From NCBI RefSeq assembly GCF_988242995.1, contig NZ_OZ547043.1: a stretch of DNA of 64,000 nucleotides; one strand, given 5' to 3'. A program made the translations under genes and the position numbers. Position 1 is the stretch's first letter. Each line of letters opens with the position of its first letter. This document shows, piece after piece, positions 10,925 through 64,000 of the stretch. Under the pieces are notes generated by a model that saw only the letters and a program-made list of their open reading frames with translations, was not told the origin of the DNA and did not search any database.

Positions 10925-13542
10925 TATGCAAGCCTCACAATATAGTTAAATGCGATGTTTTTTACGGTATTTTCTGTATTACCTGTAGCATTAACGGTAA
11001 TAGAGTGCCCGTGTGAGCCAATAGCAACCGTGTGTGAATGTGCACCAATACCAACAGTATGGTTATGTGCTCCAATGTCGACTGTATGTGCATGATTGCC
11101 TGATGAACTTGTAGTCGTAGCACCTTTATCACTTCGCGGAACACCATAATCTGCACCGCCTGATTGCACGCTCACAGCAAAACCGACGGTATGTGTATGA
11201 TTGCCAGAAGTATTGGTTGATTTTGTGCCGTGGTTAAACGTACTGACTGTTTTTGTCCCGTAATCAAATGAACTGGTTGTTTTCGTTCCCAAATCCGTAT
11301 TTGACGCACTGGCGCTGTGAGTATGCGATTTAATCCCGTCCTGTTCCTGTGACAATACGGCACGCCCACTGGCAGGTTTGCCCTTGATTGTCCAGCCGCG
11401 CATATCAGGAATAACACCTGAAGGATAGGCAACAGCCAGTTTCGGATATGCAGCCTTATCAAACGTCTGCCCCTGCATAATTGCATAGCCCGCAGGTGGT
11501 GTATCTGATGGCCACGGCAACGGAACACCTGGCGGAAACGCTTCAATATCTTTCGTCCCGTCAAACGTTACGCCATTAATCGCCCTTGCCGTTTTCAGCT
11601 TTGTAGCTGTAGCCGCATTGCCGGACAGTTCGCCTGAAAGACCGGCGCTGAAGGTTTGTTTCGCCGCCCATGTCTGAGCTTCGTCGATAATTGGCACACG
11701 TCTTGTCGTGATCGTGCGGCTTCCCGGATTTCCTGAAATACGCACCATAAAAAAGCGGTAGTTCGCTTTACTTACAGTGCTGCGCCATACATGCATTGAG
11801 CGCCCAGTACCGGAATCATCACTCGGACCAACTGCGATGTTTATCAGGTTGCCATCAATGACGCCCCAGTCCATACCGTCGGGAATATTGGTCATGTTAT
11901 CAAGCCGAACGGTTATCAGACTGCCCGGCACAAAGTCGTGGGTCTGCCAGTCCAGGCTGGTGAGTTTTGCCACTGCACCGCCGATACCCAGATTCAGGGG
12001 AAGTGAATACGAGGTGTAGACTTCCCGCCATTCGCTCCACGAGCTGCCGGTATAGACGCGCTCAAACGTGCGACCTTTAAGGGTTGCACCTGTTCCGGCA
12101 GTTGTATAACGCTGCCATACGTTAACACCATCAAAGCGCCTCAACACTTCCAGAATACCGAGGACTGTCACGCCGTTTCCGTCCAGTATTGGACCGTTGG
12201 TCGCTTTACCTGTAACGCTGTAAATACCTGGTGAAGTCACATCATTCAAATCCCCGTCGTAATAACGACTCTCTGACTGATGACCGACTCTTAACCACGG
12301 TTCCCACTGCGGATTTGATGCATCCCAGCTTGCCGCAAGGCAGCGGACATACATATTTCCACGGCGAGTGGTATAACGTTGCGTTCTTCCATAATTCCCG
12401 CCTTCGAGGATCTCAAGCGTCCCCTGAGCAAAGCCGCCTTCCTCTGGATAATTGCGTTCATATGAAGCTATAGCCGAGCTACTGTTACGCCATAAACCAA
12501 GATGTTCGGCGGCTCCAAGCGTATTCAGGTCTATAGTCGTACTCAAAGGGCGGGTAGCTGATTGAGTGTGACGCCATACGCCCCATGGACCATCAGTACC
12601 ATTCCACTGATTGGCGAGTTTACGCATGTATACATTGCCGTCTCTCGTGATAAAGCGTTGCGTGCCTGCAAAATTGCCGGCAGCAAAAACCTCAAGCACA
12701 CCGACAGCATTATCTTCCGGGAAATTTTTCTCCAGTGTTGCGTTAGTTGAGGTAGCTTTAGACCAGATCCCCAGATAAGCCTTAACGGGACCAAATGTAT
12801 TCAGATCAGCATCAACCGGCATTTCGCCGTTGTTTTTCATAAACGTCAGGCTGGTAACGCCAACATTGTCCAGAAAAGCGTCCTTATCTGGAATATCGCC
12901 ACCGTTCTGGTCTTTCTGCAGACGTTTCTCAGCATTGTCATAGGCTGCTTTTACTGCCTTTGGCGTTGCCGCCAGCTTTTCACTGGTGCTGTTTGTTGCA
13001 CTGCTTAACTGAGTAAAACCTTTTTCTGTCAGCGTGGCGTCAGGATGGCGGCGGGACTGCTCATGCTCTGCGATTTTGTCATCGACGTAATCCTGCGTCG
13101 CCATCACCGTGCTGGCATCAATACTCAGCTCAACGGACGCCACGTTGCTGAGAATAATAACCATGCGGCAGGTCTGCGCACGTCCGGAGCCTTCAGCCAG
13201 TTCTGGCTTATAGCTTTCTGCCATGTTGGATACCGCAATCAGTGTTCCGGCATCGTCATACAGACCAAGCTCACGCATCCAGAAGCCGCCCACTTCGGGC
13301 GGTACAACCAGTTCAGCCACGATATAGTTTTTATTCTTGTTATCCACGCTGACTTTATTCAGAGCGTGACGCCAGACCTCATGCACCAGTTTCGTCTGAC
13401 CGGCATCCGGCACCGGCAATTTGCCATTACCGTCACCCACGGCCATTGCAGACAGGTTTACTTTTTTCCCGCCGGGGACAGTGGCGGCTGCCAGCTTTGC
13501 GGCTCCGGCAGTAGTGATAACGGTTTTAAATTTCGTGCTCAT
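10924..13542 (-). CDS. H: Tail fiber protein gpH (long variant with His-rich C-terminal repeats)
   Basis: 872 aa; N-terminus P2 H-like; C-terminal region has repeated HxH motifs ([34 protein letters not shown]). Confidence 0.85.
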
Positions 13543-20248: not shown

Positions 20249-21322
20249 TTACGCTCCCGGCTCTGCGGTCGCTTTAGCCAGTGTGGAGAAATCACCGACC
20301 TTAATTTTTTCCACCAGACAACCGGCGGCGTAGTCTTCCACCACGTAATCAATGTTCATTGACTCGTAGTTCTCCACGCGGTCGAGTTTCGGGTTTTCCT
20401 CAATCACGCGGCGATGGCTGTCATCCATGTAGTAGATGGACAGGTTTTCCAGCTTTGTGATGAGCATCGCATCCGCCGGGAAGTACGGGACGCGTACCGC
20501 CGGCAGGTTACCGATGCGTTTCTGGCTGATGATGACGTCAGCGGCCAGCATTTCGCTGTTGTCCTGCTCCTTGTTGACGATGGGAAAATACTTGTCCGCC
20601 AGTAGCTGACGTCCCACAATCACCACAAGGTCAGGGTCTTCCTGATACCACGGCTCAATCAGGTTGTTGGTCGCATCCATCACCAGTGCGTCAAGGCTGG
20701 CATAATCACCGCCCTTACCCACGCGGATAACCTCAGAGGTCGTGCGGCCTTCCTCGTCAGTGACCTTGCTCATCACGCGCGCCGGGGCTTCATTGCGGTA
20801 TTTCTGCAGCCAGCCGACCGCCACATCCTGCAGCATCGGATTGCTGCTGCGGTCAGAGGTTTCTGCACGCTTCACGCCGTTAAAACCGGCCATAATGAAA
20901 TCAAGGGACTGGCGTTTGATAATGGCGTTACGGACACGGAGCTGGAAATCCTGATAACGCGCCCACAGGTCAAGCGTTTTGTAGCGGATATAAAAATCGA
21001 AGTTAATCTGGTCGCATTCGTACTTGTTTGACGCCAGCTTCGAGAAGTCCTTCGGCTGACGCTCGGTGCCACCGGCAGTGTCGGTGGTGCTGGCGATTGA
21101 GCCGGTGACACCAATACCAATTTTTTCCCCTTTCATTTCGCTGACCGGCACAATGTTGATGCGGGTCAGAAAATCAGAGGACTCCTGCATGGTGTTCATC
21201 AGGGTCTGGGTGACCGACGGTTCAACGGTGAATTTTTTCGACACATCACCGGCGTCGATGCCGTTCAGTTCGGCAACACGGGACAGGTAGGCATTAAATT
21301 TAAAGCGGGTTTCCTGGCGCAT
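20249..21322 (-). CDS. N: Major capsid protein gpN
   Basis: 357 aa, P2 N length and position. Confidence 0.9.
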   Translation of the reverse strand: MRQETRFKFNAYLSRVAELNGIDAGDVSKKFTVEPSVTQTLMNTMQESSDFLTRINIVPVSEMKGEKIGIGVTGSIASTTDTAGGTERQPKDFSKLASNKYECDQINFDFYIRYKTLDLWARYQDFQLRVRNAIIKRQSLDFIMAGFNGVKRAETSDRSSNPMLQDVAVGWLQKYRNEAPARVMSKVTDEEGRTTSEVIRVGKGGDYASLDALVMDATNNLIEPWYQEDPDLVVIVGRQLLADKYFPIVNKEQDNSEMLAADVIISQKRIGNLPAVRVPYFPADAMLITKLENLSIYYMDDSHRRVIEENPKLDRVENYESMNIDYVVEDYAAGCLVEKIKVGDFSTLAKATAEPGA

Positions 21323-22235: not shown

Positions 22236-22408
22236 TGTCAGGAGTCCTGAATAGTGATTAGAGGAGTCACATGTCGGCATCAGTTTCCCGACGATACGCA
22301 TCCTCCGCCATCAGTCCCGGATGGCTTATCACTGACACAACAGCACCTTAGCGAATCGCGGGGCGCGACTCAGTAGCCTTGCCGTGTATTCATCACGGCG
22401 AGGTATTC

Positions 22409-24181
22409 ATGACCATCACCACAGACACCACTCTTTTACACGACCCGCGTCGTCAGGCGGCGCTGCTGTACTGGCAGGGGTTTTCCGTGCCGCAGATTGC
22501 CGCCATGTTGCAGATGAAACGCCCGACGGTGCAGAGCTGGAAACAGCGCGACGGCTGGGACAGCGTTGCCCCCATCAGCCGTGTCGAAATGAGTCTGGAA
22601 GCGCGGCTGACCCAGCTCATCATCAAACCGCAGAAAACCGGCGGTGACTTCAAGGAAATTGACCTGCTCGGACGCCAGATTGAACGACTGGCACGGGTCA
22701 ACCGTTACAGTCAGACCGGCAACGAGGCAGACCTTAATCCGAACGTCGCTAACCGCAACAAAGGCGGGCGTCGCAAACCGAAAAAGAATTTTTTCAGTGA
22801 CGAGGCCATCGAAAAGCTGGACCAGATTTTCTTTGAGCAGTCTTTCGAATATCAGTTGCACTGGTATCGCGCCGGGCTTGAGCACCGCATCCGCGATATC
22901 CTGAAATCCCGCCAGATTGGCGCGACGTTTTATTTTTCCCGCGAGGCGCTGCTGCGCGCCCTGAAAACCGGTCATAACCAGATTTTTCTGTCGGCCAGTA
23001 AAACGCAGGCGTATGTGTTCCGCGAATACATCATCGCCTTTGCCCGGCTGGTTGACGTTGACCTGACCGGTGACCCGATTGTCCTGGGCAATAACGGCGC
23101 AAAACTGATTTTTCTCGGCACCAACTCCAACACCGCGCAGAGCCATAACGGCGACCTGTACGTCGACGAGATTTTCTGGATCCCGAATTTTCAGGTACTG
23201 CGTAAGGTGGCATCAGGTATGGCCTCACAGAGTCACCTGCGTTCGACCTATTTCTCCACCCCGTCCACGCTGGCGCACGACGCCTACCCGTTCTGGTCGG
23301 GTGAACTGTTTAACCGGGGACGCGCCAGCGCCGCCGAACGCGTGGAAATCGACGTCAGTCATAACGCCCTTGCCGGTGGACTTCTCTGTGCGGACGGCCA
23401 GTGGCGGCAGATTGTCACCATTGAGGACGCCCTGAAAGGCGGCTGCACGCTGTTCGACATTGAGCAGCTTAAACGCGAAAACAGCGCCGACGATTTTAAA
23501 AACCTGTTCATGTGTGAATTTGTTGACGACAAGGCGTCGGTGTTCCCGTTCGAGGAGCTGCAACGCTGCATGGTCGACACGCTGGAAGAATGGGAAGACT
23601 ATGCGCCGTTTGCCGCGAATCCGTTCGGCTCCCGCCCGGTATGGATTGGTTACGACCCGTCACACCGTGGCGACAGCGCCGGATGCGTGGTACTGGCACC
23701 GCCGGTGGTGGCCGGTGGCAAATTCAGAATACTTGAGCGTCACCAGTGGAAAGGCATGGACTTTGCCACTCAGGCTGAATCCATCCGCAAACTCACCGAA
23801 AAATACAACGTCGAATACATCGGTATTGATGCCACCGGCCTCGGTGTCGGCGTGTTCCAGCTCGTGCGCTCGTTCTATCCCGCCGCGCGCGACATCCGCT
23901 ACACGCCGGAAATGAAAACCGCAATGGTGCTCAAGGCAAAAGACGTTATCCGCCGTGGCTGTCTGGAATATGACGTCAGCGCCACCGACATCACCAGCTC
24001 GTTTATGGCTATCCGCAAGACCATGACCAGCAGCGGGCGCAGCGCCACCTATGAGGCCAGCCGCAGCGAGGAAGCCAGCCACGCCGACCTCGCCTGGGCG
24101 ACCATGCACGCCCTGTTAAATGAGCCACTCACCGCCGGTATCAGCACCCCGCTGACATCCACCATTCTGGAGTTTTACTGA
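22409..24181 (+). CDS. P: Terminase large subunit (ATPase) gpP
   Basis: 590 aa from ATG 22409 (MTITTDTTLLH...), divergent from O as in P2; ORF-track start 22379 is a TTG. Confidence 0.9.
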   Translation: MTITTDTTLLHDPRRQAALLYWQGFSVPQIAAMLQMKRPTVQSWKQRDGWDSVAPISRVEMSLEARLTQLIIKPQKTGGDFKEIDLLGRQIERLARVNRYSQTGNEADLNPNVANRNKGGRRKPKKNFFSDEAIEKLDQIFFEQSFEYQLHWYRAGLEHRIRDILKSRQIGATFYFSREALLRALKTGHNQIFLSASKTQAYVFREYIIAFARLVDVDLTGDPIVLGNNGAKLIFLGTNSNTAQSHNGDLYVDEIFWIPNFQVLRKVASGMASQSHLRSTYFSTPSTLAHDAYPFWSGELFNRGRASAAERVEIDVSHNALAGGLLCADGQWRQIVTIEDALKGGCTLFDIEQLKRENSADDFKNLFMCEFVDDKASVFPFEELQRCMVDTLEEWEDYAPFAANPFGSRPVWIGYDPSHRGDSAGCVVLAPPVVAGGKFRILERHQWKGMDFATQAESIRKLTEKYNVEYIGIDATGLGVGVFQLVRSFYPAARDIRYTPEMKTAMVLKAKDVIRRGCLEYDVSATDITSSFMAIRKTMTSSGRSATYEASRSEEASHADLAWATMHALLNEPLTAGISTPLTSTILEFY

Positions 24182-25215
24182 TGAGCAAGAAAAAAGGGAA
24201 AACACCGCAACCTGCGGCAAAAAAAATGACCGCCAGCGCCCCGAAAATGGAGGCATTCACCTTTGGTGAGCCGGTGCCGGTACTCGACCGCCGTGACATT
24301 CTGGATTACGTCGAGTGCATCAGTAACGGCAGATGGTATGAGCCACCGGTCAGCTTTACCGGTCTGGCAAAAAGTCTGCGTGCTGCCGTGCATCACAGCT
24401 CACCGATTTACGTTAAACGCAATATTCTGGCCTCGACATTTATCCCGCATCCGTGGCTTTCGCAACAGGATTTCAGCCGCTTTGTGCTGGATTTTCTGGT
24501 GTTCGGTAATGCGTTTCTGGAAAAGCGTTACAGCACCACCGGTAAGGTCATCAGACTGGAAACCTCACCGGCCAAATATACCCGTCGTGGCGTGGAGGAG
24601 GATGTTTACTGGTGGGTGCCGTCCTTCAACGAGCCGACAGCCTTCGCGCCCGGCTCCGTGTTTCACCTGCTGGAGCCTGATATTAATCAGGAGCTGTACG
24701 GCCTGCCGGAATATCTCAGCGCCCTTAACTCTGCCTGGCTGAATGAGTCGGCCACGCTGTTCCGCCGCAAGTATTACGAAAACGGCGCACATGCCGGATA
24801 CATCATGTACGTCACCGATGCCGTGCAGGACCGCAACGATATCGAAATGCTTCGCGAAAACATGGTTAAGTCGAAAGGCCGCAATAACTTTAAAAATCTG
24901 TTTCTCTATGCCCCACAGGGGAAAGCCGACGGCATTAAAATTATCCCGCTCAGTGAAGTGGCAACGAAGGACGATTTTTTTAATATCAAAAAAGCCAGTG
25001 CCGCAGACCTGCTGGACGCGCACCGCATCCCCTTTCAGTTGATGGGGGGCAAGCCGGAGAACGTCGGGTCGCTGGGTGATATTGAGAAAGTGGCAAAGGT
25101 CTTTGTCCGCAATGAGCTTATCCCGTTACAGGACAGGATCCGAGAGATAAACGGCTGGCTCGGTCAGGAGGTCATCCGCTTTAAAAACTACTCACTGGAC
25201 ACTGACAACGACTGA
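24181..25215 (+). CDS. Q: Portal protein gpQ
   Basis: 344 aa, ATGA overlap with P stop; P2 Q length and position. Confidence 0.9.
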   Translation: MSKKKGKTPQPAAKKMTASAPKMEAFTFGEPVPVLDRRDILDYVECISNGRWYEPPVSFTGLAKSLRAAVHHSSPIYVKRNILASTFIPHPWLSQQDFSRFVLDFLVFGNAFLEKRYSTTGKVIRLETSPAKYTRRGVEEDVYWWVPSFNEPTAFAPGSVFHLLEPDINQELYGLPEYLSALNSAWLNESATLFRRKYYENGAHAGYIMYVTDAVQDRNDIEMLRENMVKSKGRNNFKNLFLYAPQGKADGIKIIPLSEVATKDDFFNIKKASAADLLDAHRIPFQLMGGKPENVGSLGDIEKVAKVFVRNELIPLQDRIREINGWLGQEVIRFKNYSLDTDND

Positions 25216-25554: not shown

Positions 25555-27387
25555 TCAAACAGAGCCCTGTTCAAAAACAGTATCAAAATATGGTAGGAGA
25601 GGATAAGCACACAGAAAGAAAATCAGGATGCATGCATATGTCGTTGTTTCATCGTAACAAGCATTAGTATATAAATTACCATGTGCTAATTTATGTCTTA
25701 AGGTTGCCCCACTCTTTCTGTTAAAAAGAACATCGATAGTCAAAACAAGATTTTTAGAAAAGATACTTTCCAAATCATCTCTGCATTTATCTAGAAGCTG
25801 AGAAATACTTGTTGACTCCTCTAATCCCTTATCCAAATATCTAGTAGCATCCTTTCCACTAAGCTCATAATAATAACGAACCATACCTTCCATTTGTGGT
25901 ATTAAAAGATAAGCTGCACTGATGTAATCTCCCTGCCATAATTTGTAAAAGCCCAAATTAAAAATCTCCCTAAACTCCGGCTTGACAATTGGACTAGTTG
26001 TAACCAATTTAACGAATGTTGACAACGTCAAGCCATGTTCTTGAGAAAGTACATAGCGAGCAGGTTCAAAGACACCGTTTACAAAAATCTTATGAGTAAT
26101 CTCGAAATTTCTTAGATATTGATCAATAACAACATCATCACTCATATCTTTTTTATTATCCAACGGCGGGATTGTATATATCTTACGCCCACTCTCATCA
26201 TTAATTTCTGTTCCAACAAAACTAGAGAATAAACTTTTTTCTGATAATCTTAAAACTTGTTCCCTCATGCTTTCAATATTTTCAATCGGTGTTTCACTCA
26301 TTAAAACTTTGAATATATCGGGCAAAGAACGCCCCGTCAGTTTTTTTTCACTTTCAGCAACCAAGTCACTAATATCAATAGAATGGCTTAAAGTGACATA
26401 TTCACTCCTTACTTCTTCTCTCAAATTAGCAAGTTGTTCCTTTAAATCTTCTATCTGTTGGCTATCACCACCGTACTGTCTTAATTCAGAGATAGCTGTT
26501 CTTAACCAAGAGATCTTACCCATATTATCAGGTCGTTCTGTTGCAACTTTAATAGTAATATTTGCAGATGCCAGTTTACATCTCTTGGCACGTTCATACT
26601 CACCATTTTTTTCATAAATAACTGCACTTGTCATATAAAGTGATTTTACAGCATCATAATATTTTTTATCTTTATGCTGCTCAGCCATCTTCTCAGCATT
26701 TTCCGCATACTGCAGATTATACCCATCAAAATCACGCACCATAAACCAAGTCAAATTATTGAAACCTTCAAAGATTAATCTTTCATTTTGAATACTATAA
26801 AGAGAATGAATGGCATTTTTAATCGCCATGTTTCCTTCTGATTTTCTAGGGTAGACCATTTTATTAATGTGCAAAGCCCTAGCAATATAATCACGAGCAA
26901 AAATAAAGCAATTTAAATCACTTTCATCCATGCTTTCGTTTTTTATTATTAGCTTTTCAATTGCTATATTTAGCATTTCAGCATAGGAATCAATTGCTTT
27001 AATTGCCACGTCTTTATTTTTCCGATTATTACACCAAACAACATCATATATTCTTGATAACAAAAATGGATTGGTTATTTTTTGAGAAACATATAAAAGA
27101 CAGTCATTCACCTGCTCATCAAAATCTTCAGGCAATATTGATCTTTTATTACCCCAAATCATTTGGGGTTCAAATGCTGGAGTGTTGTTAACAACTTGCA
27201 AATTGAAACTATATAGCATACCAAAAAGAGATGCTAATTTTTTCTCTTTGGGGTTTTCTGATGACTCAGCAATCCCATCCAGATATTTTTTTATTTTATG
27301 TGCATGAAATGTAACTGGTATATACATAAAAACACTATAATCTAGTGTTTCAAGCTCTTCCCTTGTAAGAACAAAGATATCATTCAT
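25555..27387 (-). CDS. Cargo protein, 611 aa, unknown family; C-terminal R-x4-H (HEPN-like) motif; candidate single-gene defence/abortive-infection effector
   Basis: Large ORF in the P2 tin/old position between cos and A; ~30-35% GC on sampled lines versus ~52% flanks; ATG 27387 with AAGGTG RBS (track start 27492 is a TTG); motif RHKLAH encoded at 25681-25698; no Walker A seen. Confidence 0.6.
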   Translation of the reverse strand: MNDIFVLTREELETLDYSVFMYIPVTFHAHKIKKYLDGIAESSENPKEKKLASLFGMLYSFNLQVVNNTPAFEPQMIWGNKRSILPEDFDEQVNDCLLYVSQKITNPFLLSRIYDVVWCNNRKNKDVAIKAIDSYAEMLNIAIEKLIIKNESMDESDLNCFIFARDYIARALHINKMVYPRKSEGNMAIKNAIHSLYSIQNERLIFEGFNNLTWFMVRDFDGYNLQYAENAEKMAEQHKDKKYYDAVKSLYMTSAVIYEKNGEYERAKRCKLASANITIKVATERPDNMGKISWLRTAISELRQYGGDSQQIEDLKEQLANLREEVRSEYVTLSHSIDISDLVAESEKKLTGRSLPDIFKVLMSETPIENIESMREQVLRLSEKSLFSSFVGTEINDESGRKIYTIPPLDNKKDMSDDVVIDQYLRNFEITHKIFVNGVFEPARYVLSQEHGLTLSTFVKLVTTSPIVKPEFREIFNLGFYKLWQGDYISAAYLLIPQMEGMVRYYYELSGKDATRYLDKGLEESTSISQLLDKCRDDLESIFSKNLVLTIDVLFNRKSGATLRHKLAHGNLYTNACYDETTTYACILIFFLCAYPLLPYFDTVFEQGSV

Positions 27388-27506
27388 CGTTTTCACCTTT
27401 TTCAGTATAAATTTGCACGCATTATTATTAGCAACATAATCATCAATAGTTAACACATGCAGATAGACAGCAATTTTACTATTATGCAACAAATTAAATC
27501 AGATGT

Positions 27507-29789
27507 TTATTGCTCTGAATAACAATAAAACCAACTCCACTCATCAGCGACCGGATACGTAAATTTTTTCCCGTTGTAATTTACGGTCGCTCCACGCGCC
27601 AGCGCCTCCATCTCCCATCGCTGCGGCCTGATACCGTTCTGAGCAAGGTCAACGCGGATACGGGTAATTTGCATTCGTTCCGACCGGGTCAGTCTGGCCG
27701 ATGGCGCTATTTCATGCGGTTTTAGCGGGCTTCCGTTTCTTTGCTGACGATTTAGCGTTCTCAGCCCGTGTTTTAATGCGCCCCTGAGCGCCTTCACGAC
27801 CTCCGGGTCATTCCATTCGATAACACCGTCATTAACCAGATTAAGCACTGCTGCGGCGTGCTCAGAAGGTGTGGGAGCCGGTAACGAAGTATCACCACCA
27901 GTGAGCTTTCCACAGTTATTGACAGGACTCCGAGGCGCGGCGATGCCGCTTTTTAAAGTCAAAGGCTCAACGACCGGAACTTTCGGCACAATGCGCCAGT
28001 CCGTCGTTCTGGTGATATGAATATGACGCGCGCCGAGATGCGGCGCGTAAATGCCGACCACTCTCTCAACTTCTTCCTCGTACTCGTTAACGTCATCCGA
28101 CGGGCTACGGGCAACCCTGACAGTCTGACAATCGCGCGGGACATTTGCCCCACCCTGCGCGCTGATATACAACGCAAAATCACCACTGTCTGCGGCGGCG
28201 CGTGCAGCCTCGACGCGTTCGTCAAACTCATCAGCAATGCTGACGCCGCGAGGCAATTTGCGTAGTTCACGGTAAGCCCCCATTGTCGGCAGGCCAACCG
28301 TTTTAAATTGCGGGATGCGCCACGTTGACGCCCATGCGGTAACAGCCGCGGCAGTGTCATTCAGCGGTCTGCCGGTATCATTATCGAGCTGACCATCCAG
28401 TGCATATCCGTCGATATTTTTTGAGATGTATTTCGCGATATACCCCGCAGCACCGCCCCGGTTAAGGTGTTTCGCCTGAAAACGGTTTCGCGCGGCTCCT
28501 CTTTCGTCGCCATCCTCTTTGAGCGCGTAGCGACGCATGATTTCAATAATCTGGTTACGCTGGCGTGGATTACAAAAAAGCATCATATGCCAGTGCGGCG
28601 TTCCGTCGTGGTGTGGCTCGACGACTCGCAAACCGTAGACCTGTAAATCATTATCCTTGAATGCCGTGCGCATCAGGCTCCAGATACGGCAGAGATAACG
28701 CTGCGCATCCTTTGGATTAAATGCCTCATCGTTCCAGCCGTGATTAAGCTGGACGGTTTTACTTTCGCCTTTTCCGACCTGACGTGTCGGGTGATACTTT
28801 GACGGCGCGGTCAGCGTGATAAACATCCCCACATCACCCTCTGCGGCGGCGTAACGCTCAATACCGGCAATGGTGTTCATCAGCTCCATCCGGCGAATTT
28901 CAGGATTAGAAATACTGCCCATCACCTTACTGATAAGGTCGATGCGCTCGCCGGTTTCCCTGTTTTCAAGGTCACACGATTTAAGAAATTCCAGATTTGC
29001 CTGGCGGCGTGCACGTACATCACGAATGGCATGTTTACTGGCATAAGGAGAACGGTCTTTATTCACCTCCCCGACAGCAATCAGTAACGCCTCATGCCAG
29101 CGCATACGCTGGCCTTTAAGCTGATGAGTCCACCACTCATCGTTAAACAGACGGGCAATGGCAGAATATGCCTGCCTCGTGGTCATCTGTCCTTTACGGT
29201 ATTTTTTCCAGTAGAGAGGGGAAATATTGAAAGCACGTGCAGCGCCAGCAACATGACCATAGAGGTGAGCCTGCGCCTCATCCGTAAACAGCGATTCTTT
29301 CTCGCCATGCGCATCCACCCAGGCATCGCAGAGTTCCTCATACATCATGAAAAGCTGCGATGAGATACGGGCAGCAAATTTTTTCAGCTCCTTGTCATTC
29401 ATTCCCGGCAGGCGCGCATACTGGTCGCGCTCTGCCAGAAACAGCAACGACGCATCGGTGTTCATTTCATGGCGCTGATTCACACGATCAATGCGCGGCC
29501 ATAAACGACGCTGAAAAGTGGATGTGAGGAAATAAAACCCGTGCACTGGGCTTTTATTGCGCCTGATGTAGTCATAGCGTGAAGTAAACAGCGAGCGCAA
29601 AAAGTAAGGCAGGCGGTTAATCGTGGATAAAACACCTTGCACCTGACGCATCTCATCACGTGTAAGAGGTCTTTCGCGCCCGACAGCCTCGCGTGGCGCG
29701 TTCCATGCATAAGCACCGGTAAACATCTTACCGGTGCCTGCGGCAAATGCTGACGGAGGGACAAAACGCCCGGAGGCTTTAACGGCCAT
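27507..29789 (-). CDS. A: Replication initiation protein gpA (rolling-circle nickase)
   Basis: 761 aa from ATG 29789 (MAVKASGRFVPP...), P2 A length; track start 29831 is a TTG. Confidence 0.9.
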   Translation of the reverse strand: MAVKASGRFVPPSAFAAGTGKMFTGAYAWNAPREAVGRERPLTRDEMRQVQGVLSTINRLPYFLRSLFTSRYDYIRRNKSPVHGFYFLTSTFQRRLWPRIDRVNQRHEMNTDASLLFLAERDQYARLPGMNDKELKKFAARISSQLFMMYEELCDAWVDAHGEKESLFTDEAQAHLYGHVAGAARAFNISPLYWKKYRKGQMTTRQAYSAIARLFNDEWWTHQLKGQRMRWHEALLIAVGEVNKDRSPYASKHAIRDVRARRQANLEFLKSCDLENRETGERIDLISKVMGSISNPEIRRMELMNTIAGIERYAAAEGDVGMFITLTAPSKYHPTRQVGKGESKTVQLNHGWNDEAFNPKDAQRYLCRIWSLMRTAFKDNDLQVYGLRVVEPHHDGTPHWHMMLFCNPRQRNQIIEIMRRYALKEDGDERGAARNRFQAKHLNRGGAAGYIAKYISKNIDGYALDGQLDNDTGRPLNDTAAAVTAWASTWRIPQFKTVGLPTMGAYRELRKLPRGVSIADEFDERVEAARAAADSGDFALYISAQGGANVPRDCQTVRVARSPSDDVNEYEEEVERVVGIYAPHLGARHIHITRTTDWRIVPKVPVVEPLTLKSGIAAPRSPVNNCGKLTGGDTSLPAPTPSEHAAAVLNLVNDGVIEWNDPEVVKALRGALKHGLRTLNRQQRNGSPLKPHEIAPSARLTRSERMQITRIRVDLAQNGIRPQRWEMEALARGATVNYNGKKFTYPVADEWSWFYCYSEQ

Positions 29790-30054
29790 ATGAGCCAAAA
29801 GCCTCTGAGCAACGCTTGCTGAGTTGCTCAACCTGCGCGTTTAAATCAGCAAAAGACTTTGCGCTTCCGGTCAGAATATCGTGATGCATCAGGCCGGAAA
29901 CGAGCTGGCTTAATTTCGGGTAATAACCAACCACCGCCAGCCATTCCTGACCGGCGTTTTTACCGCTTTCCGCTCTCTTTTTCTCGTGGAGAATAAACTG
30001 AAAGCTGTCACTGGTAACGACATAACGTTCGCCAATTTCGATACGAATACTCAT
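29779..30054 (-). CDS. Small early protein (P2 orf83-like position)
   Basis: 91-aa ORF between B and A, coupled to neighbours. Confidence 0.6.
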   Translation of the reverse strand: MSIRIEIGERYVVTSDSFQFILHEKKRAESGKNAGQEWLAVVGYYPKLSQLVSGLMHHDILTGSAKSFADLNAQVEQLSKRCSEAFGSYGR

Positions 30055-32347: not shown

Positions 32348-33361
32348 ATGGCAATCAAAAAACTCGATGATGGTCGATATGAAGTGGACATCCGCCCTAC
32401 TGGACGTAATGGAAAACGCATCCGTAGGAAGTTTGATAAGAAAAGCGAAGCTGTCGCTTTCGAGAAATACACGTTGTACAACCACCACAATAAAGAATGG
32501 CTATCAAAACCAACAGACAAGCGACGTCTGTCGGAGCTGACACAGATCTGGTGGGATTTAAAGGGTAAACACGAAGAGCATGGGAGATCTAATCTTGGAA
32601 AAATTGAAATCTTCACAAAAATAACGAATGACCCATGCGCATTTCAAATTTCGAAATCGCTTATCAGCCAGTACTGCGCCACCCGAAGAAGTCAGGGTAT
32701 TAAACCTTCGAGTATCAATCGTGATTTAACATGTATTAGCGGCATGTTTACAGCCCTGATTGAAGCGGAGTTATTCTTTGGTGAGCACCCTATCAGAGGG
32801 ACAAAAAGGCTTAAGGAGGAAAAACCAGACACAGGCTATCTCACGCAGGAAGAAATTGCCTTACTGCTTGCTGCTCTTGACGGCGACAACAAAAAGATTG
32901 CGATTCTTTGCCTGAGTACTGGAGCACGTTGGGGAGAAGCAGCTCGTTTGAAAGCAGAAAATATTATCCATAACCGCGTCACGTTTGTTAAAACGAAAAC
33001 AAACAAACCACGCACCGTCCCGATCTCAGAGGCTGTTGCCAAAATGATCGCGGATAACAAACGAGGTTTTTTATTCCCTGATGCTGATTACCCTCGCTTC
33101 AGACGAACAATGAAAGCAATAAAACCGGATTTGCCAATGGGGCAAGCCACACATGCACTAAGGCACAGCTTTGCCACTCATTTCATGATTAATGGAGGAA
33201 GTATTATCACGCTACAACGGATACTAGGTCACACACGGATTGAGCAAACTATGGTTTACGCTCATTTTGCGCCAGAGTACCTTCAGGACGCCATTTCTCT
33301 TAATCCGCTAAGAGGTGGTACTGAGGCTGAGAGTGTCCACACAGTGTCCACAGTAGAGTAA
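32348..33361 (+). CDS. int: Tyrosine integrase
   Basis: 337 aa, P2 Int length; catalytic-region motifs (ARWGE, HALRHSFATH, VYAHF); 80 bp from attR. Confidence 0.9.
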   Translation: MAIKKLDDGRYEVDIRPTGRNGKRIRRKFDKKSEAVAFEKYTLYNHHNKEWLSKPTDKRRLSELTQIWWDLKGKHEEHGRSNLGKIEIFTKITNDPCAFQISKSLISQYCATRRSQGIKPSSINRDLTCISGMFTALIEAELFFGEHPIRGTKRLKEEKPDTGYLTQEEIALLLAALDGDNKKIAILCLSTGARWGEAARLKAENIIHNRVTFVKTKTNKPRTVPISEAVAKMIADNKRGFLFPDADYPRFRRTMKAIKPDLPMGQATHALRHSFATHFMINGGSIITLQRILGHTRIEQTMVYAHFAPEYLQDAISLNPLRGGTEAESVHTVSTVE

Positions 33362-49616: not shown

Positions 49617-49745
49617 AGTTTGCTCCTGCCATAACGTTAAGAAGCAATGACCTGGTGGTCCGTGACTTCCCTACGCTGGCATTATCCAGATCAGGTGATA
49701 CGGGTATTTCTCAGCCTTCACGCAGAAGGGCACCCCGAGTCGTTT
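49617..49745 (-). promoter_or_regulatory. TPP (thi-box) riboswitch in the thiMD leader
   Basis: Minus-strand sequence actcggggtgcccttctgcgtgaaggctgagaaatacccgtatcacctgatctggataatgccagcgtagggaa... matches the remembered E. coli thiM aptamer (CUGAGA thi-box present). Confidence 0.8.
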
Positions 49746-49838
49746 GGTTGCGATGATAAATCGCAGAGGAGGATGGTAATGTCCAGCGCACGCGTTGTAA
49801 ACGAGGAAAAACCGCAGTTTTACAATCGCGTTAATAAA

Positions 49839-58487: not shown

Positions 58488-58618
58488 CCCGACTCCTTTT
58501 TTGTATAGATAAACCATCAGCGGATAGTTTACCTGAAGAATATAGAGAAGTACTTACTTAACATTTTCCCATTTGGTACTATCTAACCCCTTTTCACTAT
58601 TAAGAAGTAATGCCTACT

Positions 58619-60652
58619 ATGACTCAAGTCGCGAAGAAAATTCTGGTGACGTGCGCACTGCCGTACGCTAACGGCTCAATCCACCTCGGCCATATGCTGG
58701 AGCACATCCAGGCTGATGTCTGGGTCCGTTACCAGCGAATGCGCGGCCACGAGGTCAACTTCATCTGCGCCGACGATGCCCACGGTACACCGATCATGCT
58801 GAAAGCTCAGCAGCTTGGTATCACCCCGGAGCAGATGATTGGCGAAATGAGTCAGGAGCATCAGACTGATTTTGCAGGCTTTAACATCAGCTATGACAAC
58901 TATCACTCGACGCACAGCGAAGAGAACCGCCAGCTGTCTGAGCTTATCTATACTCGCCTGAAAGAGAACGGTTTTATTAAAAACCGCACCATCTCTCAGC
59001 TGTACGATCCGGAAAAAGGCATGTTCCTGCCGGACCGTTTTGTAAAAGGCACCTGCCCTAAATGTAAAGCGCCAGATCAATACGGCGATAACTGTGAAGT
59101 CTGCGGCGCGACTTACAGCCCGACTGAACTGATCGAGCCGAAATCGGTAGTTTCTGGCGCTACCCCGGTAATGCGTGATTCTGAACACTTCTTCTTTGAT
59201 CTGCCCTCTTTCAGCGAAATGTTGCAGGCATGGACCCGCAGCGGTGCGTTGCAGGAGCAGGTGGCAAACAAAATGCAGGAGTGGTTTGAATCTGGTCTGC
59301 AACAGTGGGATATCTCCCGCGATGCGCCGTACTTCGGTTTTGAAATTCCGAACGCGCCTGGTAAATATTTCTACGTCTGGCTGGACGCACCGATTGGCTA
59401 CATGGGTTCCTTCAAGAATCTGTGCGACAAGCGCGGCGACAGCGTAAGCTTCGATGAATACTGGAAGAAAGACTCCACCGCCGAGCTGTACCACTTCATC
59501 GGTAAAGATATCGTTTACTTCCACAGCCTGTTCTGGCCTGCCATGCTGGAAGGCAGCAACTTCCGTAAGCCGACCAACCTGTTTGTTCATGGCTATGTGA
59601 CGGTGAACGGCGCGAAGATGTCCAAGTCTCGCGGCACCTTTATTAAAGCCAGCACCTGGCTGAATCATTTTGATGCTGACAGCCTGCGTTACTACTACAC
59701 TGCGAAACTCTCTTCGCGCATTGATGATATCGATCTCAACCTGGAAGATTTCGTTCAGCGTGTGAATGCCGATATCGTGAATAAAGTGGTTAACCTGGCA
59801 TCCCGTAACGCTGGCTTTATCAACAAGCGTTTTGACGGCGTGCTGGCAAGCGAACTGGCTGACCCGCAACTGTACAAAACCTTTACTGATGCCGCTGAAG
59901 TGATTGGCGAAGCATGGGAAAGCCGCGAATTTGGTAAAGCTATCCGTGAAATCATGGCATTGGCTGACCTGGCTAATCGCTATGTCGATGAACAGGCTCC
60001 GTGGGTGGTGGCGAAACAGGAAGGCTGCGATGCTGACCTGCAGGCAATTTGCTCGATGGGCATAAACCTGTTCCGCGTGCTGATGACTTACCTGAAGCCG
60101 GTACTGCCGAAACTGACCGAGCGTGCAGAAGCCTTCCTCAATACAGAACTGACCTGGGATGGTATCCAGCAACCGCTGTTGGGCCATAAAGTGAATCCGT
60201 TCAAAGCGCTGTATAACCGCATCGATATGAAGCAGGTTGAAGCACTGGTGGAAGCGTCTAAAGAAGAAGTGAAAGCAGCTGCCGCGCCAGTTACTGGCCC
60301 ACTGGCAGATGATCCGATTCAGGAAACCATCACCTTTGACGACTTCGCTAAAGTTGACCTGCGCGTGGCGTTGATCGAAAACGCAGAGTTTGTTGAAGGT
60401 TCTGACAAACTGCTGCGCCTGACGCTGGATCTCGGCGGTGAAAAACGCAATGTCTTCTCCGGCATTCGTTCTGCTTACCCGGATCCGCAGGCACTGATTG
60501 GTCGTCATACCATTATGGTGGCTAACCTGGCACCACGTAAAATGCGCTTCGGTATCTCCGAAGGCATGGTGATGGCTGCCGGTCCTGGCGGGAAAGATAT
60601 TTTCCTGCTAAGCCCGGATGCCGGTGCTAAACCGGGTCATCAGGTGAAATAA
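58619..60652 (+). CDS. metG: Methionyl-tRNA synthetase
   Basis: 677 aa from ATG 58619 ([25 protein letters not shown]...); HLGH and KMSKS motifs. Confidence 0.95.
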
Positions 60653-60662
60653 TCCCCCTTCA

Positions 60663-60693
60663 AGGCGCTGTATCGACAGCGCCTTTTCTTTAT
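60663..60693 (+). terminator. metG rho-independent terminator
   Basis: Hairpin aggcgctg-tatcga-cagcgcct followed by T-rich tract. Confidence 0.6.
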
Positions 60694-60792
60694 AAATTCC
60701 TAAAGTTGTTTTCTTGCGATTTTGTCTCTCTCTAACCCGCATAAATACTGGTAGCATCAGCATTCAACTGGATAAAATTACAGGGATGCAGA

Positions 60793-63700
60793 ATGAAACA
60801 CTTTATCTATCAGGACGAAAAATCACATAAATTCTGGGCGGTGGAGCAGCAGGGAAACGAGCTGCATATTAACTGGGGTAAAGTCGGCACTAACGGGCAA
60901 AGTCAGGTAAAAAGCTTTGCAGATGCTGCGGCGGCGGAAAAAGCGGAACTGAAGCTGATTGCGGAGAAGGTGAAGAAGGGGTATGTGGAAGAATTATCTT
61001 CGCCATCCCAACCCGCAATCAAAATAGAAACGATCGAAGTAGATACAACTGGCGTGGCAGAAACCACAGTCGTATTTGACCAAAGTATGGTTGTTGAACC
61101 TGCTGAGACACCATGCCCGTGGCTGACAGATGATTCCCCTATCCATCTATCGGAGAAAAAGTCTCAGGAGGCCTTACCTTCCCGACGTTTTCCTGGGGAT
61201 GCTGTAAGCGAACCACAAGACAGCCTCCTTATGAATTTAGGTCAGGATATTCATAATCTATCAGGAAAAATAACAACATACGATTTCAGTGCATGTTCTG
61301 CTAACTGGCAGCAGAATATCAATGAAGCTCTCGCTAATGGTCCACTTTCTCCTGCTGCGTTGGCTGTACAGGTTGTTCTGGTTTCACGTAAATTCTGGGA
61401 CGAATGCCCTGAACTCATGGATGAAATTGTCTATGTCTACGGACTAGAATTTGCCGTGGATATGTTTATTGCCATGCAATATATCTCGTTCGATTGCACT
61501 TATCACAGAACAAGCATACACATTACTTTTCAGCCATTATTAAACCATGCACATTGTGTTACCCCCTTTGACGTTCGACTGCGTAAACATTTGGCTCTAG
61601 CAGAAGAAACTTTGTGGCAACGCTGTGTAGATAAATTCATTACAGCTTTGCCTGATATTCCTCCCGTTCAACAACCGATGGTAGCGCTAATGCTACCGGA
61701 ACGCCCGGAGATTGCAGAAGAAATCGCACGACGGTTACTGGAGCAGAAAAATATCCAATCTGTTGAATGGCTGAAACTTGTTGTACAAGAATCTTCCTTG
61801 CTCAAAGCACTGGAATCTTATTGCGCGTACGACCTTTTTAATGACTATTACCATGGTTGCATCTGGAATGTCACCGTTTTGCAGGAGCAAGGGATTGCCG
61901 GAATCGCTCGCTTCGCCCCCTATGCTTATGCTGATCTTTGCGGAAGTATTCTCGCAGAGATCAATCACCCACAAGCATTAATGCTACTTATACGTGTGTC
62001 TGGCAAAACTAAACGCTGCCATGAACGAATGACTAAGGCTTGCGCTGCGTTCCCACACACGGCACTGGCGGCACTGGCGGAACTTCTTGCGCAAAAAGAA
62101 GAGAATAGTTGGCGCATTATGCTAATGACGATGCTTATCTCGCAACCGGCACTAGCAGAACAGGTCACTCCCTGGCTCTCAACACCCGCAGTTGCCGTAC
62201 TGAAATCATGCCAGCAACAACTGACACAGCCCTCAAACCATGCCAGCGCCGATATGCTGCCAGCCATATTAGTCTCACCGCCCTGGCTTTCGAAAAAGAA
62301 AAAATCTGTAATGCCGGTATTGGATTTAACGCCATTACCGCTGGAGTCATGCTGCACATTGACCGAGACGGCAGAAAAAGAGATTCATGCAAGGCATCGC
62401 TGGCACGCACATCAAATAGACATCGGCCAAAAAGAGGATATTCAGAACTACCTGGCACGTCTGGGTTTCAATCGCTGGAATAATGGCCAGTATATGAAAG
62501 CGTCTGATGCTGTTGTAGAACTCTGGCAGAGGGGAGATTATTCTGCGCTAATCAGCGAATTTAAAACCTTCTGGCACTCCTATCAACGGGAATGGCAGCT
62601 TTACATGTTAGCCGCCCTGCCTATCGAAAAAACAGCGCAGGCGTGGAATGTCCTCAGTAAAGAGCCACACGTCGGTGTCGAGTTTGTCATGACGCACCTG
62701 CAACTCGCTGGGTTACAGGGTTTTATTCACTCCTTTTCACGCTATCCACAAGAAGCTCTGCCTGTAGCACAATATTTTGCGGCTATCGAATTAGCGCCAC
62801 TGATCGCCCGCGCCTTCAACAAACTCAAAACCCTACGACAAGACGCCCGCACCTGGCTGCTGAAATACCCGGAACACGCCATTACCGGCCTGCTACCTTC
62901 GGCGCTCGGCAAAGCCGGTGAAGCACAGGATAACGCCCGCGCTGCCTTGCGTATGCTTACCGAAAACGGTCATCAACCATTACTGCAAGAAATCGCCCGG
63001 CGTTATAACCAGCCGGAAGTAACAGATGCGGTGAACGCTCTGCTTGCGCTCGATCCCTTAGATAATCACCCGACAAAAATCCCCACTCTTCCGGCCTTTT
63101 ATCAGCCATCGATCTGGACCCGCCCGGTATTAAAAGCAAATGCCCAATCACTGCCAGATAGCGCCCTCCTCCACCTCGGTGAAATGCTCCGCTTCCCTCA
63201 GGAAGAGGCACTGTATCCGGGATTATTGCAGGTGAAAGATGCCTGTATCGCCGACTCACTGGCTGAATTTGCCTGGGATCTGTTTACCGCCTGGCTGGCC
63301 GCTGGCGCACCATCGAAAGAGAGCTGGGCGTTCACTGCGTTAGGTGTTCTCGGTAACGACGACACCGCCCGCAAACTGACGCCTTTGATTCGCGCCTGGC
63401 CTGGTGAATCCCAGCATAAACGCGCCACCGTCGGGCTGGATATTCTCGCTGCTATCGGTAGTGATATCGCCCTGATGCAGCTTAACGGCATTGCTCAGAA
63501 ACTGAAATTCAAAGCCTTACAGGAGCGGGCGAAAGAGAAAATTGCCGACATTGCCGAGAGCCGCGAACTCACGGTGGCGGAGCTTGAAGACCGGTTAGCA
63601 CCGGATCTCGGTCTGGATGATAACGGTTCGCTGCTGCTGGATTTTGGCCCACGGCAGTTCACCGTCAGCTTTGATGAAACCTTAAAACCGTTTGTGCGTG

Positions 63701-64000
63701 ATGTTTCTGGCAGCCGTCTGAAAGACCTGCCCAAACCAAACAAAAGCGATGATGAATCACAGGCGAACGATGCTGTTAACCGCTACAAACTGCTGAAAAA
63801 AGATGCGCGTACCGTCGCCGCCCAGCAGGTAGCAAGGCTGGAATCCGCCATGTGCCTGCGCCGCCGCTGGTCGCCGGAAAACTTCCAGCTCTTCCTGGTT
63901 GAGCATCCGCTGGTTCGTCACTTAACCCGCCGTCTGATTTGGGGTGTTTATAGCGCCGAAAACCAGCTGCAGGCTTGCTTTCGCGTAGCGGAAGATAACA
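60793..64000 (+). CDS. molR: MolR-like large protein with N-terminal WGR domain, open through window end (3' partial)
   Basis: ATG 60793; hand translation stays open for ~1069 codons to window edge; absent from ORF track probably because no stop lies in the window; N-terminus FIYQDEKSHKFWAVEQQGNELHINWGKVG is WGR-like. Confidence 0.7.
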   Translation, partial: MKHFIYQDEKSHKFWAVEQQGNELHINWGKVGTNGQSQVKSFADAAAAEKAELKLIAEKVKKGYVEELSSPSQPAIKIETIEVDTTGVAETTVVFDQSMVVEPAETPCPWLTDDSPIHLSEKKSQEALPSRRFPGDAVSEPQDSLLMNLGQDIHNLSGKITTYDFSACSANWQQNINEALANGPLSPAALAVQVVLVSRKFWDECPELMDEIVYVYGLEFAVDMFIAMQYISFDCTYHRTSIHITFQPLLNHAHCVTPFDVRLRKHLALAEETLWQRCVDKFITALPDIPPVQQPMVALMLPERPEIAEEIARRLLEQKNIQSVEWLKLVVQESSLLKALESYCAYDLFNDYYHGCIWNVTVLQEQGIAGIARFAPYAYADLCGSILAEINHPQALMLLIRVSGKTKRCHERMTKACAAFPHTALAALAELLAQKEENSWRIMLMTMLISQPALAEQVTPWLSTPAVAVLKSCQQQLTQPSNHASADMLPAILVSPPWLSKKKKSVMPVLDLTPLPLESCCTLTETAEKEIHARHRWHAHQIDIGQKEDIQNYLARLGFNRWNNGQYMKASDAVVELWQRGDYSALISEFKTFWHSYQREWQLYMLAALPIEKTAQAWNVLSKEPHVGVEFVMTHLQLAGLQGFIHSFSRYPQEALPVAQYFAAIELAPLIARAFNKLKTLRQDARTWLLKYPEHAITGLLPSALGKAGEAQDNARAALRMLTENGHQPLLQEIARRYNQPEVTDAVNALLALDPLDNHPTKIPTLPAFYQPSIWTRPVLKANAQSLPDSALLHLGEMLRFPQEEALYPGLLQVKDACIADSLAEFAWDLFTAWLAAGAPSKESWAFTALGVLGNDDTARKLTPLIRAWPGESQHKRATVGLDILAAIGSDIALMQLNGIAQKLKFKALQERAKEKIADIAESRELTVAELEDRLAPDLGLDDNGSLLLDFGPRQFTVSFDETLKPFVRDVSGSRLKDLPKPNKSDDESQANDAVNRYKLLKKDARTVAAQQVARLESAMCLRRRWSPENFQLFLVEHPLVRHLTRRLIWGVYSAENQLQACFRVAEDN

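Follow-up and report, generated by a model that had tools for sequence, protein, structure and literature searches.

RavA–ViaA, CoxD–CoxE, NorQ–NorD, CbbQ–CbbO and midasin share the pairing of an AAA_5 ATPase with a VWA/MIDAS component, a pairing that recurs in YehL and YehP of Escherichia coli; one of the MoxR subfamilies is named YehL, and proteins of the MoxR type have been described as chaperone-like maturases of dedicated complexes (PMC3893208). To this pair the Yeh cluster adds DUF5682, SWIM and WGR/DUF4132 proteins, the last in 1–7 copies, one of them being the product of the gene formerly called molR in strain K-12. That gene is listed among the LexA-regulated genes of E. coli with a known SOS box (PMC6590174, Table 1, which cites Fernandez de Henestrosa 2000 and Courcelle 2001 for SOS regulation in K-12); its promoter has been shown experimentally to be activated by BglJ–RcsB and its disruption in K-12 is already in print (both PMC3950696). 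Here we analyse an open counterpart that begins at position 60793 of a 64,000-nucleotide (nt) stretch of contig NZ_OZ547043.1 (assembly GCF_988242995.1; the whole stretch is called the window below), runs past the window end and encodes a protein that is itself neither an ATPase nor a VWA protein.

Two further systems share domains with this protein. In Deinococcus radiodurans a WGR gene (DR2173) and a DUF4132 gene (DRA0166) are strongly upregulated on depletion of DdrO (PMC8533742), a control that parallels LexA here, although the domains there lie on separate proteins, in a different phylum and under a different repressor, the likeness being one of domain content. The second comparison is with PARP1, PARP2 and PARP3, whose WGR domains are described in PMC6294510 and PMC13061835 as recognising DNA breaks, and with Bacteroides fragilis Q64V53 (2ra8), to which the WGR domain in the window is clearly homologous; the window protein differs from the PARPs in lacking a PARP catalytic domain, BRCT and zinc fingers and in its motif, WGK, and its binding of nucleic acid is putative.

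The exact protein is in public databases with NCBI annotation, and the K-12 pseudogene, SOS box and BglJ–RcsB control are published, so that much of this gene is already known and ordinary. It is, on the other hand, one of the few classical LexA regulon members without a known function, and that function is out of reach in the standard laboratory strain, since K-12 carries both a stop and a frameshift; strains with intact alleles are the right material. The parts that we consider worth pursuing are a mosaic of variable cassettes within the gene and a linkage of DUF4132 gene arrays to yehLMPQ.

An open molR-type gene at the end of the window

Machine translation of 60793–63999 (+) gave a single open frame of 1069 sense codons with zero stops; base 64000 opens codon 1070, and the open reading frame (ORF) continues beyond the window. 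Assuming uniform codons, a run of this length has a chance of about (61/64)^1069, or 5e-23, and no competing ORF in the other frames over 60793–64000 exceeds 130 amino acids (aa). The initial ATG follows a GGGA Shine–Dalgarno sequence at 60783–60786 and is the annotated start in both K-12 and strain 19KM1831; the encoded product begins MKHFIYQDEK (MKHFIYQDEKSHKFWAVEQQGNELHINWGKVG). Its residues 1–1069 are exactly residues 1–1069 of a 1249-aa database protein (P0004, NCBI name ‘DUF4132 domain-containing protein [Escherichia coli]’, present on 71 contigs) and are 98.0% identical to the 1249-aa coding sequence of 19KM1831. Because these identical or near-identical proteins are 1249 aa long, we expect the stop about 540 nt past the window end, with about 180 codons outside. 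The window contains the gene's 5′ 86%; the gene is intact, has the look of an expressed E. coli gene and encodes a cytoplasmic protein of 1249 aa. A ratio of nonsynonymous to synonymous substitution rates (dN/dS) of 0.20 over the whole gene, relative to the closest complete genome, indicates that it is under purifying selection.

The first-pass annotation, made from the letters of the window, had described a WGR-domain ORF open for some 1069 codons from 60793, with its stop beyond the window, and had named that position as the probable cause of its absence from the ORF track. All of this holds: translation found no in-frame stop, the database proteins supply the missing end, Pfam scores the WGR domain at 67.5 bits against a cut-off of 22, and the track does omit ORFs that run off the source. 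The gene and its domains are as follows.

60793–64000 (+): partial coding sequence of the WGR and DUF4132 protein, codons 1–1069 of an expected 1249; intact ortholog of K-12 yehF/yehH (molR)
60805–60993 (+): WGR domain, aa 5–67 (Pfam PF05406, E = 1e-18), 86–100% identical among E. coli alleles
62803–63708 (+): conserved HEAT-like alpha-solenoid, aa 671–972 (predicted)
63709–64000 (+): first half of the DUF4132 alpha/beta module, aa 973–1069 (Pfam PF13569); the domain ends at about aa 1158, outside the window

In the window translation the Pfam WGR match spans aa 7–67 and contains the motif NWGKVG, and a sequence search of the PDB aligned aa 2–79 with 2ra8 (E = 2e-19) and, marginally, with the WGR domain of PARP3; this was the only part of the window protein with a solved relative in that search. 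DUF4132 scores 89.1 bits (cut-off 27) over profile positions 1–88, where the window end cuts it, and 172 bits over positions 1–179 (aa 973–1158) in the 98%-identical full-length coding sequence of 19KM1831. A Pfam search at E ≤ 10 of the variable region and the extreme C-terminus yielded nothing meaningful, leaving WGR and DUF4132 as the only assigned domains. For the N-terminal part, NCBIfam offered a Leptospira fibronectin-binding family at 64 bits, below its cut-off of 1000; we rejected this match as reflecting the shared WGR domain.

An AlphaFold2 model of aa 60–1249, built with 58 homologs, has a mean predicted local distance difference test score (pLDDT) of 87.9 and a predicted template modelling score of 0.80 and consists almost entirely of helical repeats followed by a C-terminal alpha/beta module, which reaches a pLDDT of 92.7 when modelled alone. 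Along the chain the model shows a disordered acidic linker (aa ~60–103), a less confident helical region with two beta-hairpins and a long series of stacked helical hairpins modelled with confidence. Model residues 1–43 have a pLDDT below 50, and values of 60–70 prevail over much of the remainder of the first hypervariable segment (HV1, described below). By structure comparison, the stacked helical-hairpin repeats of the model resemble a HEAT/ARM alpha-solenoid. Apart from WGR, neither Pfam, the AlphaFold model nor fold searches gave a helix-turn-helix, another transcription-factor fold or an enzyme fold. The predicted protein thus comprises a head that would bind nucleic acid, a flexible tether and a large scaffold for interaction with proteins.

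A spacer of 140 nt separates the gene from metG (58610–60652). The closest complete genome has apbC and metG ahead of this gene (3750 nt), followed by yehI after a further 10 nt, a small yehK-like ORF, yehL, yehM and yehP, and K-12 MG1655 has the same order, including the 10-nt gap to yehI, which in the present stretch would lie outside the window. The metG–yehI interval of K-12 is annotated as yehF (b2115, 274 aa, ‘PF05406 family protein’) and the pseudogene yehH (b4499), formerly the fragments molR_1/2/3, and holds two lesions: a TGA in place of the TTA that codon 275 has in intact relatives, and an additional G within a G-run at about nt 2846, codon 949. The first-pass statement that the K-12 copy is split into molR fragments was therefore right, and by its position directly downstream of metG the window ORF is the ortholog of yehF/yehH.

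Aligning the window gene with the K-12 fragments, as had been proposed, recovers this counterpart but fails at the DNA level over half of the gene. The two alleles are alike at their ends, with WGR 89% and the C-terminal 315 aa 95% identical, and differ in that the K-12 copy is disrupted by its stop and frameshift while the window copy is open. Promoter, WGR and the C-terminal third are 89–99% identical, compared with only 31–86% for residues 66–670. DNA similarity ends at 60989, is absent or about 80% up to 62710 and then returns at 93%, and megablast-level similarity to K-12 was not found across most of 60989–62710. Naive DNA alignment breaks down because aa 1–936 are only 64.6% identical (31% in HV1 and 48% in the second hypervariable segment, HV2). 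Judged by ends and position the genes are orthologous; the middle is allelic-divergent and, on sequence comparison, appears to belong to a different cassette class.

The same annotation had considered an intact copy notable, a view that a wider sample overturns: the intact gene is the ordinary state in E. coli and the K-12 pseudogene a documented exception. Eight of 11 complete genomes, sampled evenly down the similarity ranking, have an annotated intact coding sequence. The other three carry pseudogenes, EBJ001 with the K-12 stop, GF124.3 with an independent stop at codon 671 and O157:H7 F8798 with both of its tandem copies broken. An exact copy of a K-12 63-mer that carries the TGA is present in 706 of 5426 complete genomes, many of which derive from K-12 laboratory strains, and the same region is found with 1–3 mismatches in a further 2302. 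Full-length versions of 1233, 1249, 1253, 1262 and 1264 aa abound among the proteins searched: at least 1000 contigs carry a single 1262-aa sequence, and the clusters of 1253 and 1249 aa number 1361 and 931 members. The locus occupies the same site in 5418–5423 of the 5426 complete genomes and is core rather than accessory.

The allele class of the window is less common than the gene itself, covering at least 80% of the query in 154 of the 5426 complete genomes, as the K-12 class does in 4011. The best complete E. coli match reached 98.3–98.4% DNA identity for the two segments searched (60600–64000 and 20000–44000). Because no complete genome is closer than this and metG has a synonymous divergence (dS) of 0.18 from the best-matching strain, the region would appear either to belong to a lineage outside the 5426 complete RefSeq genomes or to be a recombination mosaic.

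Hypervariable cassettes between conserved ends

Region-wise amino acid identity among nine aligned allele representatives divides the gene into the following blocks.

aa 1–65 (+): WGR, 86–100% identity among alleles
60988–61632 (+), aa 66–280: HV1, 23–40% identity between E. coli allele families; includes the acidic disordered linker
61633–62067 (+), aa 281–425: semi-variable helical segment, 42–72% in the 1253-, 1262- and 1264-aa families and 90–100% in P0033 and P0039
62368–62802 (+), aa 526–670: HV2, 31–64% in P0033 and P0070 (K-12 type) and 85–100% in other families
aa 671–1069 (+, to the window end): C-terminal region, 84–100% per 50-aa window, mostly above 90%

The blocks reassort: P0039 differs from the window allele in HV1 only, P0033 in HV2 only and the K-12 type in both, and the ST131 ortholog is 99% identical to the window in HV2 and 40% in HV1. 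GC content is 0.41–0.46 in HV1 against 0.54–0.56 in the conserved end. The variability is specific to this gene when compared with its neighbours, for which 19KM1831 and K-12 are 100% (ApbC), 99.1% (MetG), 98.3% (YehL), 97.0% (YehM) and 93.4% (YehI) identical. Allele classes are common to E. coli and E. fergusonii, and HV1 of the window is nearer to the corresponding Klebsiella copy (52–55%) than to other E. coli alleles (31–40%). Between the window and 19KM1831, dS is about 0.006 for the block covering aa 65–670, compared with 0.36 for WGR, 0.067 for the C-terminus and 0.18 for metG; a cassette block this uniform amid diverged flanks indicates recent movement between backgrounds by recombinational spread. 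We found no report of a cassette mosaic at the molR locus in a literature search.

Copy number also varies. An extra paralog (copy A) separates metG from the ortholog of the window gene (copy B) in ST131, ECE204, O157:H7, E. whittamii and K. oxytoca, its C-terminus being 55–70% identical, whereas the window, K-12 and 19KM1831 have copy B and yehI without copy A. YehI (b2118) is a downstream paralog, a 1210-aa DUF4132 protein that is 36.7% identical to the window protein over about 1180 aa and has the same helical body and DUF4132 end; it differs in lacking WGR and in being far less variable between strains (93.4% for 19KM1831 and K-12, as above). Hypervariability (23–60% identity at aa 66–425 and 526–670 within one species, against 93–100% in the neighbouring genes), changing copy number and recurrent decay are together what marks a recognition module on which selection acts in an unusual way.

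Two published observations touch the locus in other ways. In K-12, deleting molR1 (yehF) together with lepA impairs growth synthetically (PMC4245954), for which a polar effect on the adjoining metG may be responsible. In sublineage L1a of ST131, the blaCTX-M-15 transposon TnMB1860 is inserted in the molR region (PMC9334617).

A conserved promoter and DUF4132 arrays beside yehLMPQ

The 160 nt upstream of the gene are 99% identical to K-12, and results obtained with the K-12 promoter should therefore transfer. Comparison of E. coli, E. whittamii, Escherichia sp. E1V33, K. oxytoca and K. grimontii revealed four conserved islands in an otherwise diverged spacer, namely the metG terminator, TTTATAAATTC, CTGnTAGCAT and CTGGATAAAAnnACAGGGA, which correspond to the following elements in the window.

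60662–60685 (+): metG intrinsic terminator from a terminator scan, a 10-bp GC-rich stem followed by a T run, conserved from Escherichia to Klebsiella
60690–60702 (+): conserved island TTTATAAATTCCTA, invariant across Escherichia and Klebsiella, containing AATTCCTA at 60695–60702
60749–60757 (+): probable extended −10 element, TGgTAGCAT, in the invariant CTGnTAGCAT island of the five-genome footprint
60766–60785 (+): LexA (SOS) box AACTGGATAAAATTACAGGG (CTG-N10-CAG), overlapping the Shine–Dalgarno sequence and ending 8 nt before the ATG

The published BglJ–RcsB site in K-12 is centred 65–68 nt upstream of the mapped transcription start site and has the core wwTTCykA (PMC3950696); AATTCCTA fits in motif and spacing and is a putative site for this activator. 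The TGgTAGCAT element is a probable extended −10 whose spacing agrees with the same site-to-start distance, and a generic sigma-70 scan called no plus-strand promoter upstream of the gene. K-12 and 19KM1831 carry the LexA box unchanged. It has CTGG, matches 13 of 20 consensus positions and has 7 mismatches to the idealised 20-mer, and strict searches of the window (exact CTGT-N8-ACAG, or the 20-mer consensus with at most 3 mismatches) returned no match; the CTG-N10-CAG core by itself is too short to carry significance. Its significance comes instead from its identity to the published K-12 box and from its conservation across genera: it precedes the first DUF4132 gene in E. whittamii, Escherichia sp. 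E1V33, K. oxytoca and K. grimontii, and always the first gene of the array, whichever paralog occupies that place. By sequence the window gene has a LexA operator, with binding and damage induction carried over from the K-12 literature. Rfam detected no RNA family in or near the gene locus.

An exhaustive HMMER search with aa 80–1249 returned 5897 related clusters at 50% identity, 2626 of them at E ≤ 1e-30, with conservation concentrated in the C-terminal ~600 aa and a varying N-terminal part. We examined 78 loci drawn from one-genome-per-species contigs and metagenomes, with Enterobacterales, Burkholderiales, Xanthomonadales and Geobacterales represented. In 52 of the 78, 1–7 tandem DUF4132 genes abut homologs of yehL-yehM-yehP-yehQ on the same strand; most of the other 26 are truncated contigs or the interior of the long arrays of Massilia species, which have 5–7 tandem paralogs. 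A literature search found no report of this family-wide linkage, nor any functional study of yehI or yehLMPQ, although unrelated uses of ‘WGR’ and ‘YehF’ swamp the results.

The partner genes encode a MoxR-type AAA_5 ATPase (YehL), a DUF5682 protein (YehM), a CoxE-type VWA/MIDAS protein (YehP) and a SWIM zinc-finger protein (YehQ). Among solved structures YehL is closest to the AAA modules of midasin, and bpMoxR, the Pfam family of MoxR–vWA ternary systems, matches it weakly; a sequence search found no solved relative of YehM, YehP or YehQ. The gene thus heads a MoxR AAA+/VWA/SWIM/DUF5682/DUF4132 set that is conserved across Proteobacteria and whose non-ATPase components lack a solved or characterised relative. 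No conserved candidate client enzyme adjoins the Yeh cluster in the loci that we examined. A survey of type I toxin–antitoxin systems (PMC2887945) reportedly mentions yehI and yehL, and a small toxin or small RNA (sRNA) locus may exist in the yehI/yehK–yehL interval of K-12, which lies outside the window.

Candidate roles and the remainder of the window

We infer that the protein is an SOS-induced, nucleic-acid-binding adaptor of YehLMPQ with a role linked to DNA damage, a reading for and against which we consider the evidence evenly balanced. It would be a large scaffold or adaptor working with the downstream yehLMPQ products rather than a classical transcription factor. By analogy with PARP WGR domains at DNA breaks, the N-terminal WGR may tether the protein to nucleic acid; the hypervariable helical cassettes would offer a changeable surface by which a ligand or partner is recognised, and the constant C-terminal solenoid and DUF4132 would dock on the invariant, single-copy YehLMPQ engine. 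There, the MoxR/VWA pair could remodel the bound target with ATP, as RavA–ViaA, NorQD, CbbQO, CoxDE and midasin do. LexA at the operator by the start codon would repress the gene and DNA damage release it, with BglJ–RcsB as an additional activator. The paralogs (copy A where present, the window gene as copy B, and YehI without WGR) may serve as alternative adaptors feeding one engine. A constant docking end and a variable recognition end would be expected to produce the observed polarity of conservation, and the Deinococcus DdrO response may, by analogy, lend independent support to a DNA-damage context.

Several points weigh against this adaptor role. What ties the protein to YehLMPQ is gene neighbourhood alone, and its action on DNA is predicted. 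The adjacency was seen in the closest genome, in K-12 and in the 52 of 78 homologous loci; the window itself ends inside the gene, and yehLMPQ is presumed to lie beside it from the closest genomes. In E. coli a gap of about 570 nt and yehK separate yehI from yehL, so that co-transcription with yehLMPQ is not assured. We did not find the LexA box upstream of the homologs of Erwinia, Serratia, Burkholderiales (Betaproteobacteria) or Xanthomonadales, and SOS control may therefore be a local trait of Escherichia and Klebsiella. The motif here is WGK rather than WGR, and binding of nucleic acid by bacterial WGR domains is only predicted. Finally, the gene has been repeatedly inactivated in nature (K-12, EBJ001, GF124.3 and O157:H7 F8798) and is therefore dispensable under many conditions.

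A broader proposal, which we advance tentatively, is that [WGR–DUF4132]n arrays and yehLMPQ constitute an unrecognised, widespread proteobacterial system, SOS-switched in Escherichia and Klebsiella, in which interchangeable cassettes on a nucleic-acid-tethered HEAT scaffold specify the target of a midasin-like AAA+/VWA motor. Such a system might be a new, chromosomally fixed sensor of immunity or anti-mobile-element defence, or a new machine for processing DNA damage, and would have escaped characterisation largely through the loss of its lead gene in K-12.

Somewhat more doubtful is a role in conflict or immunity, in which the tandem WGR–DUF4132 proteins would be polymorphic sensors of invading phage or plasmid proteins or DNA ends, the cassettes would be target-recognition modules under diversifying or balancing selection, and YehLMPQ would serve as the activating or effector machinery, as in the MoxR–vWA ‘ternary’ conflict systems proposed by comparative genomics. 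The cassettes fit such a role: HV1 and HV2 are 23–64% identical between E. coli alleles compared with 93–100% for the flanking genes, they reassort independently, their classes are common with E. fergusonii, HV1 of the window is nearer to Klebsiella copy B and has low GC content, and a central dS of 0.006 against 0.07–0.36 in the flanks of the window and 19KM1831 points to recent recombinational spread. A copy number ranging from 1 to at least 7, recurrent independent pseudogenisation, the weak bpMoxR match of YehL and the coincidence that SOS induction would have with prophage induction are also consistent with it. The surveys of mobile elements and defence genes, however, point the other way. 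None of seven proteins (the MolR-like protein, YehI, YehK, YehL, YehM, YehP and YehQ) matched PADLOC-DB v2 (5027 models, E ≤ 0.01), in a search where a prophage gene of the same window, as positive control, matched PDC-S39 at 3e-84. A tblastn search of 50,697 phage genomes found no relative of the family, and a plasmid search found it effectively absent from true plasmids, the matches being mostly chromosome-sized records or megaplasmids. The locus is moreover core, at the same site in 5418–5423 of the 5426 complete genomes, and the DUF4132 protein contains no recognisable effector (nuclease, protease, NADase or pore), although YehM may have one.

We regard it as unlikely that the cluster is a chaperone for the maturation of a cofactor or complex, with YehL and YehP acting like CoxD/CoxE, NorQ/NorD, CbbQ/CbbO or RavA/ViaA to remodel an enzyme complex or insert a metal and the DUF4132 proteins as substrate adaptors or substrates; the old ‘molybdate utilisation’ phenotype would then be a distant echo of such a function. 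CoxD/CoxE mature the Mo–Cu centre of CO dehydrogenase, YehP matches VWA_CoxE over its full length (E = 2e-72), YehL is of the AAA_5 MoxR type, and the predicted HEAT scaffold would suit an adaptor. The naming of YehL as a subfamily of the chaperone-like MoxR maturases (PMC3893208) points in the same direction. Yet the cluster conserves no candidate client enzyme, its E. coli neighbours being metG and yehR, and hypervariability and arrays of 1–7 copies are unlike known MoxR clients. SOS control and WGR point to nucleic acid rather than to a metalloenzyme, and K-12, with its dead copy, presumably has normal molybdoenzyme activity.

The historical idea of MolR as a transcriptional regulator that governs molybdate metabolism and binds DNA through WGR survives in product names (‘molybdate metabolism regulator MolR’, ‘MolR family transcriptional regulator’) and in a description of WGR as the DNA-binding domain of ‘MolR-like TFs’ (PMC7824862, citing Lee et al. 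1990, J Bacteriol 172:2079), but is highly improbable for a 1249-aa HEAT-solenoid protein without a helix-turn-helix or other transcription-factor fold, encoded in the examined loci beside MoxR/VWA/SWIM genes and never beside mod, moa or moe, whose NCBI and EcoCyc-derived annotation has dropped molR for yehF/yehH and ‘DUF4132 domain-containing protein’, and for a domain pair whose genes in Deinococcus responded without the molybdate genes (PMC8533742). The label ‘regulator-like’ in the first-pass annotation goes back to this old name only and finds no support in the Pfam, AlphaFold and fold-search results. The original molR mutation, moreover, may have mapped to another part of the chromosome.

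Elsewhere in the window, a 610-codon ORF at 58676–60508 (−) lies antisense within metG and is very probably no gene but a shadow ORF arising from the codon bias of metG, which is highly expressed. A P2-family prophage occupies about 1500–33400, between the CyaR sRNA gene and yegR, where K-12 has a remnant only; its genes include those listed below.

1588–2751 (−): P2-family prophage gpD
10924–13542 (−): P2-family prophage tail fibre
20249–21322 (−): P2-family prophage major capsid
22379–24181 (+): P2-family prophage terminase
24181–25215 (+): P2-family prophage portal
27507–29831 (−): P2-family prophage replication endonuclease
32348–33361 (+): P2-family prophage integrase

Between the portal and replication endonuclease genes, a cargo gene at 25555–27492 (−) encodes a 645-aa DUF7380/DUF4209 protein, the match to the PADLOC candidate defence family PDC-S39 (E = 3e-84) that served as control above. 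A RES-domain protein in the tail region (8941–9699, −; Pfam E = 1.5e-12) may be the toxin of a RES–Xre type pair. Two RNA elements are ordinary for the region: the CyaR/RyeE sRNA at 1098–1183 (+; 100.7 bits), which adjoins the prophage, and a thiamine pyrophosphate riboswitch at 49651–49747 (−; 71.2 bits) upstream of thiMD.

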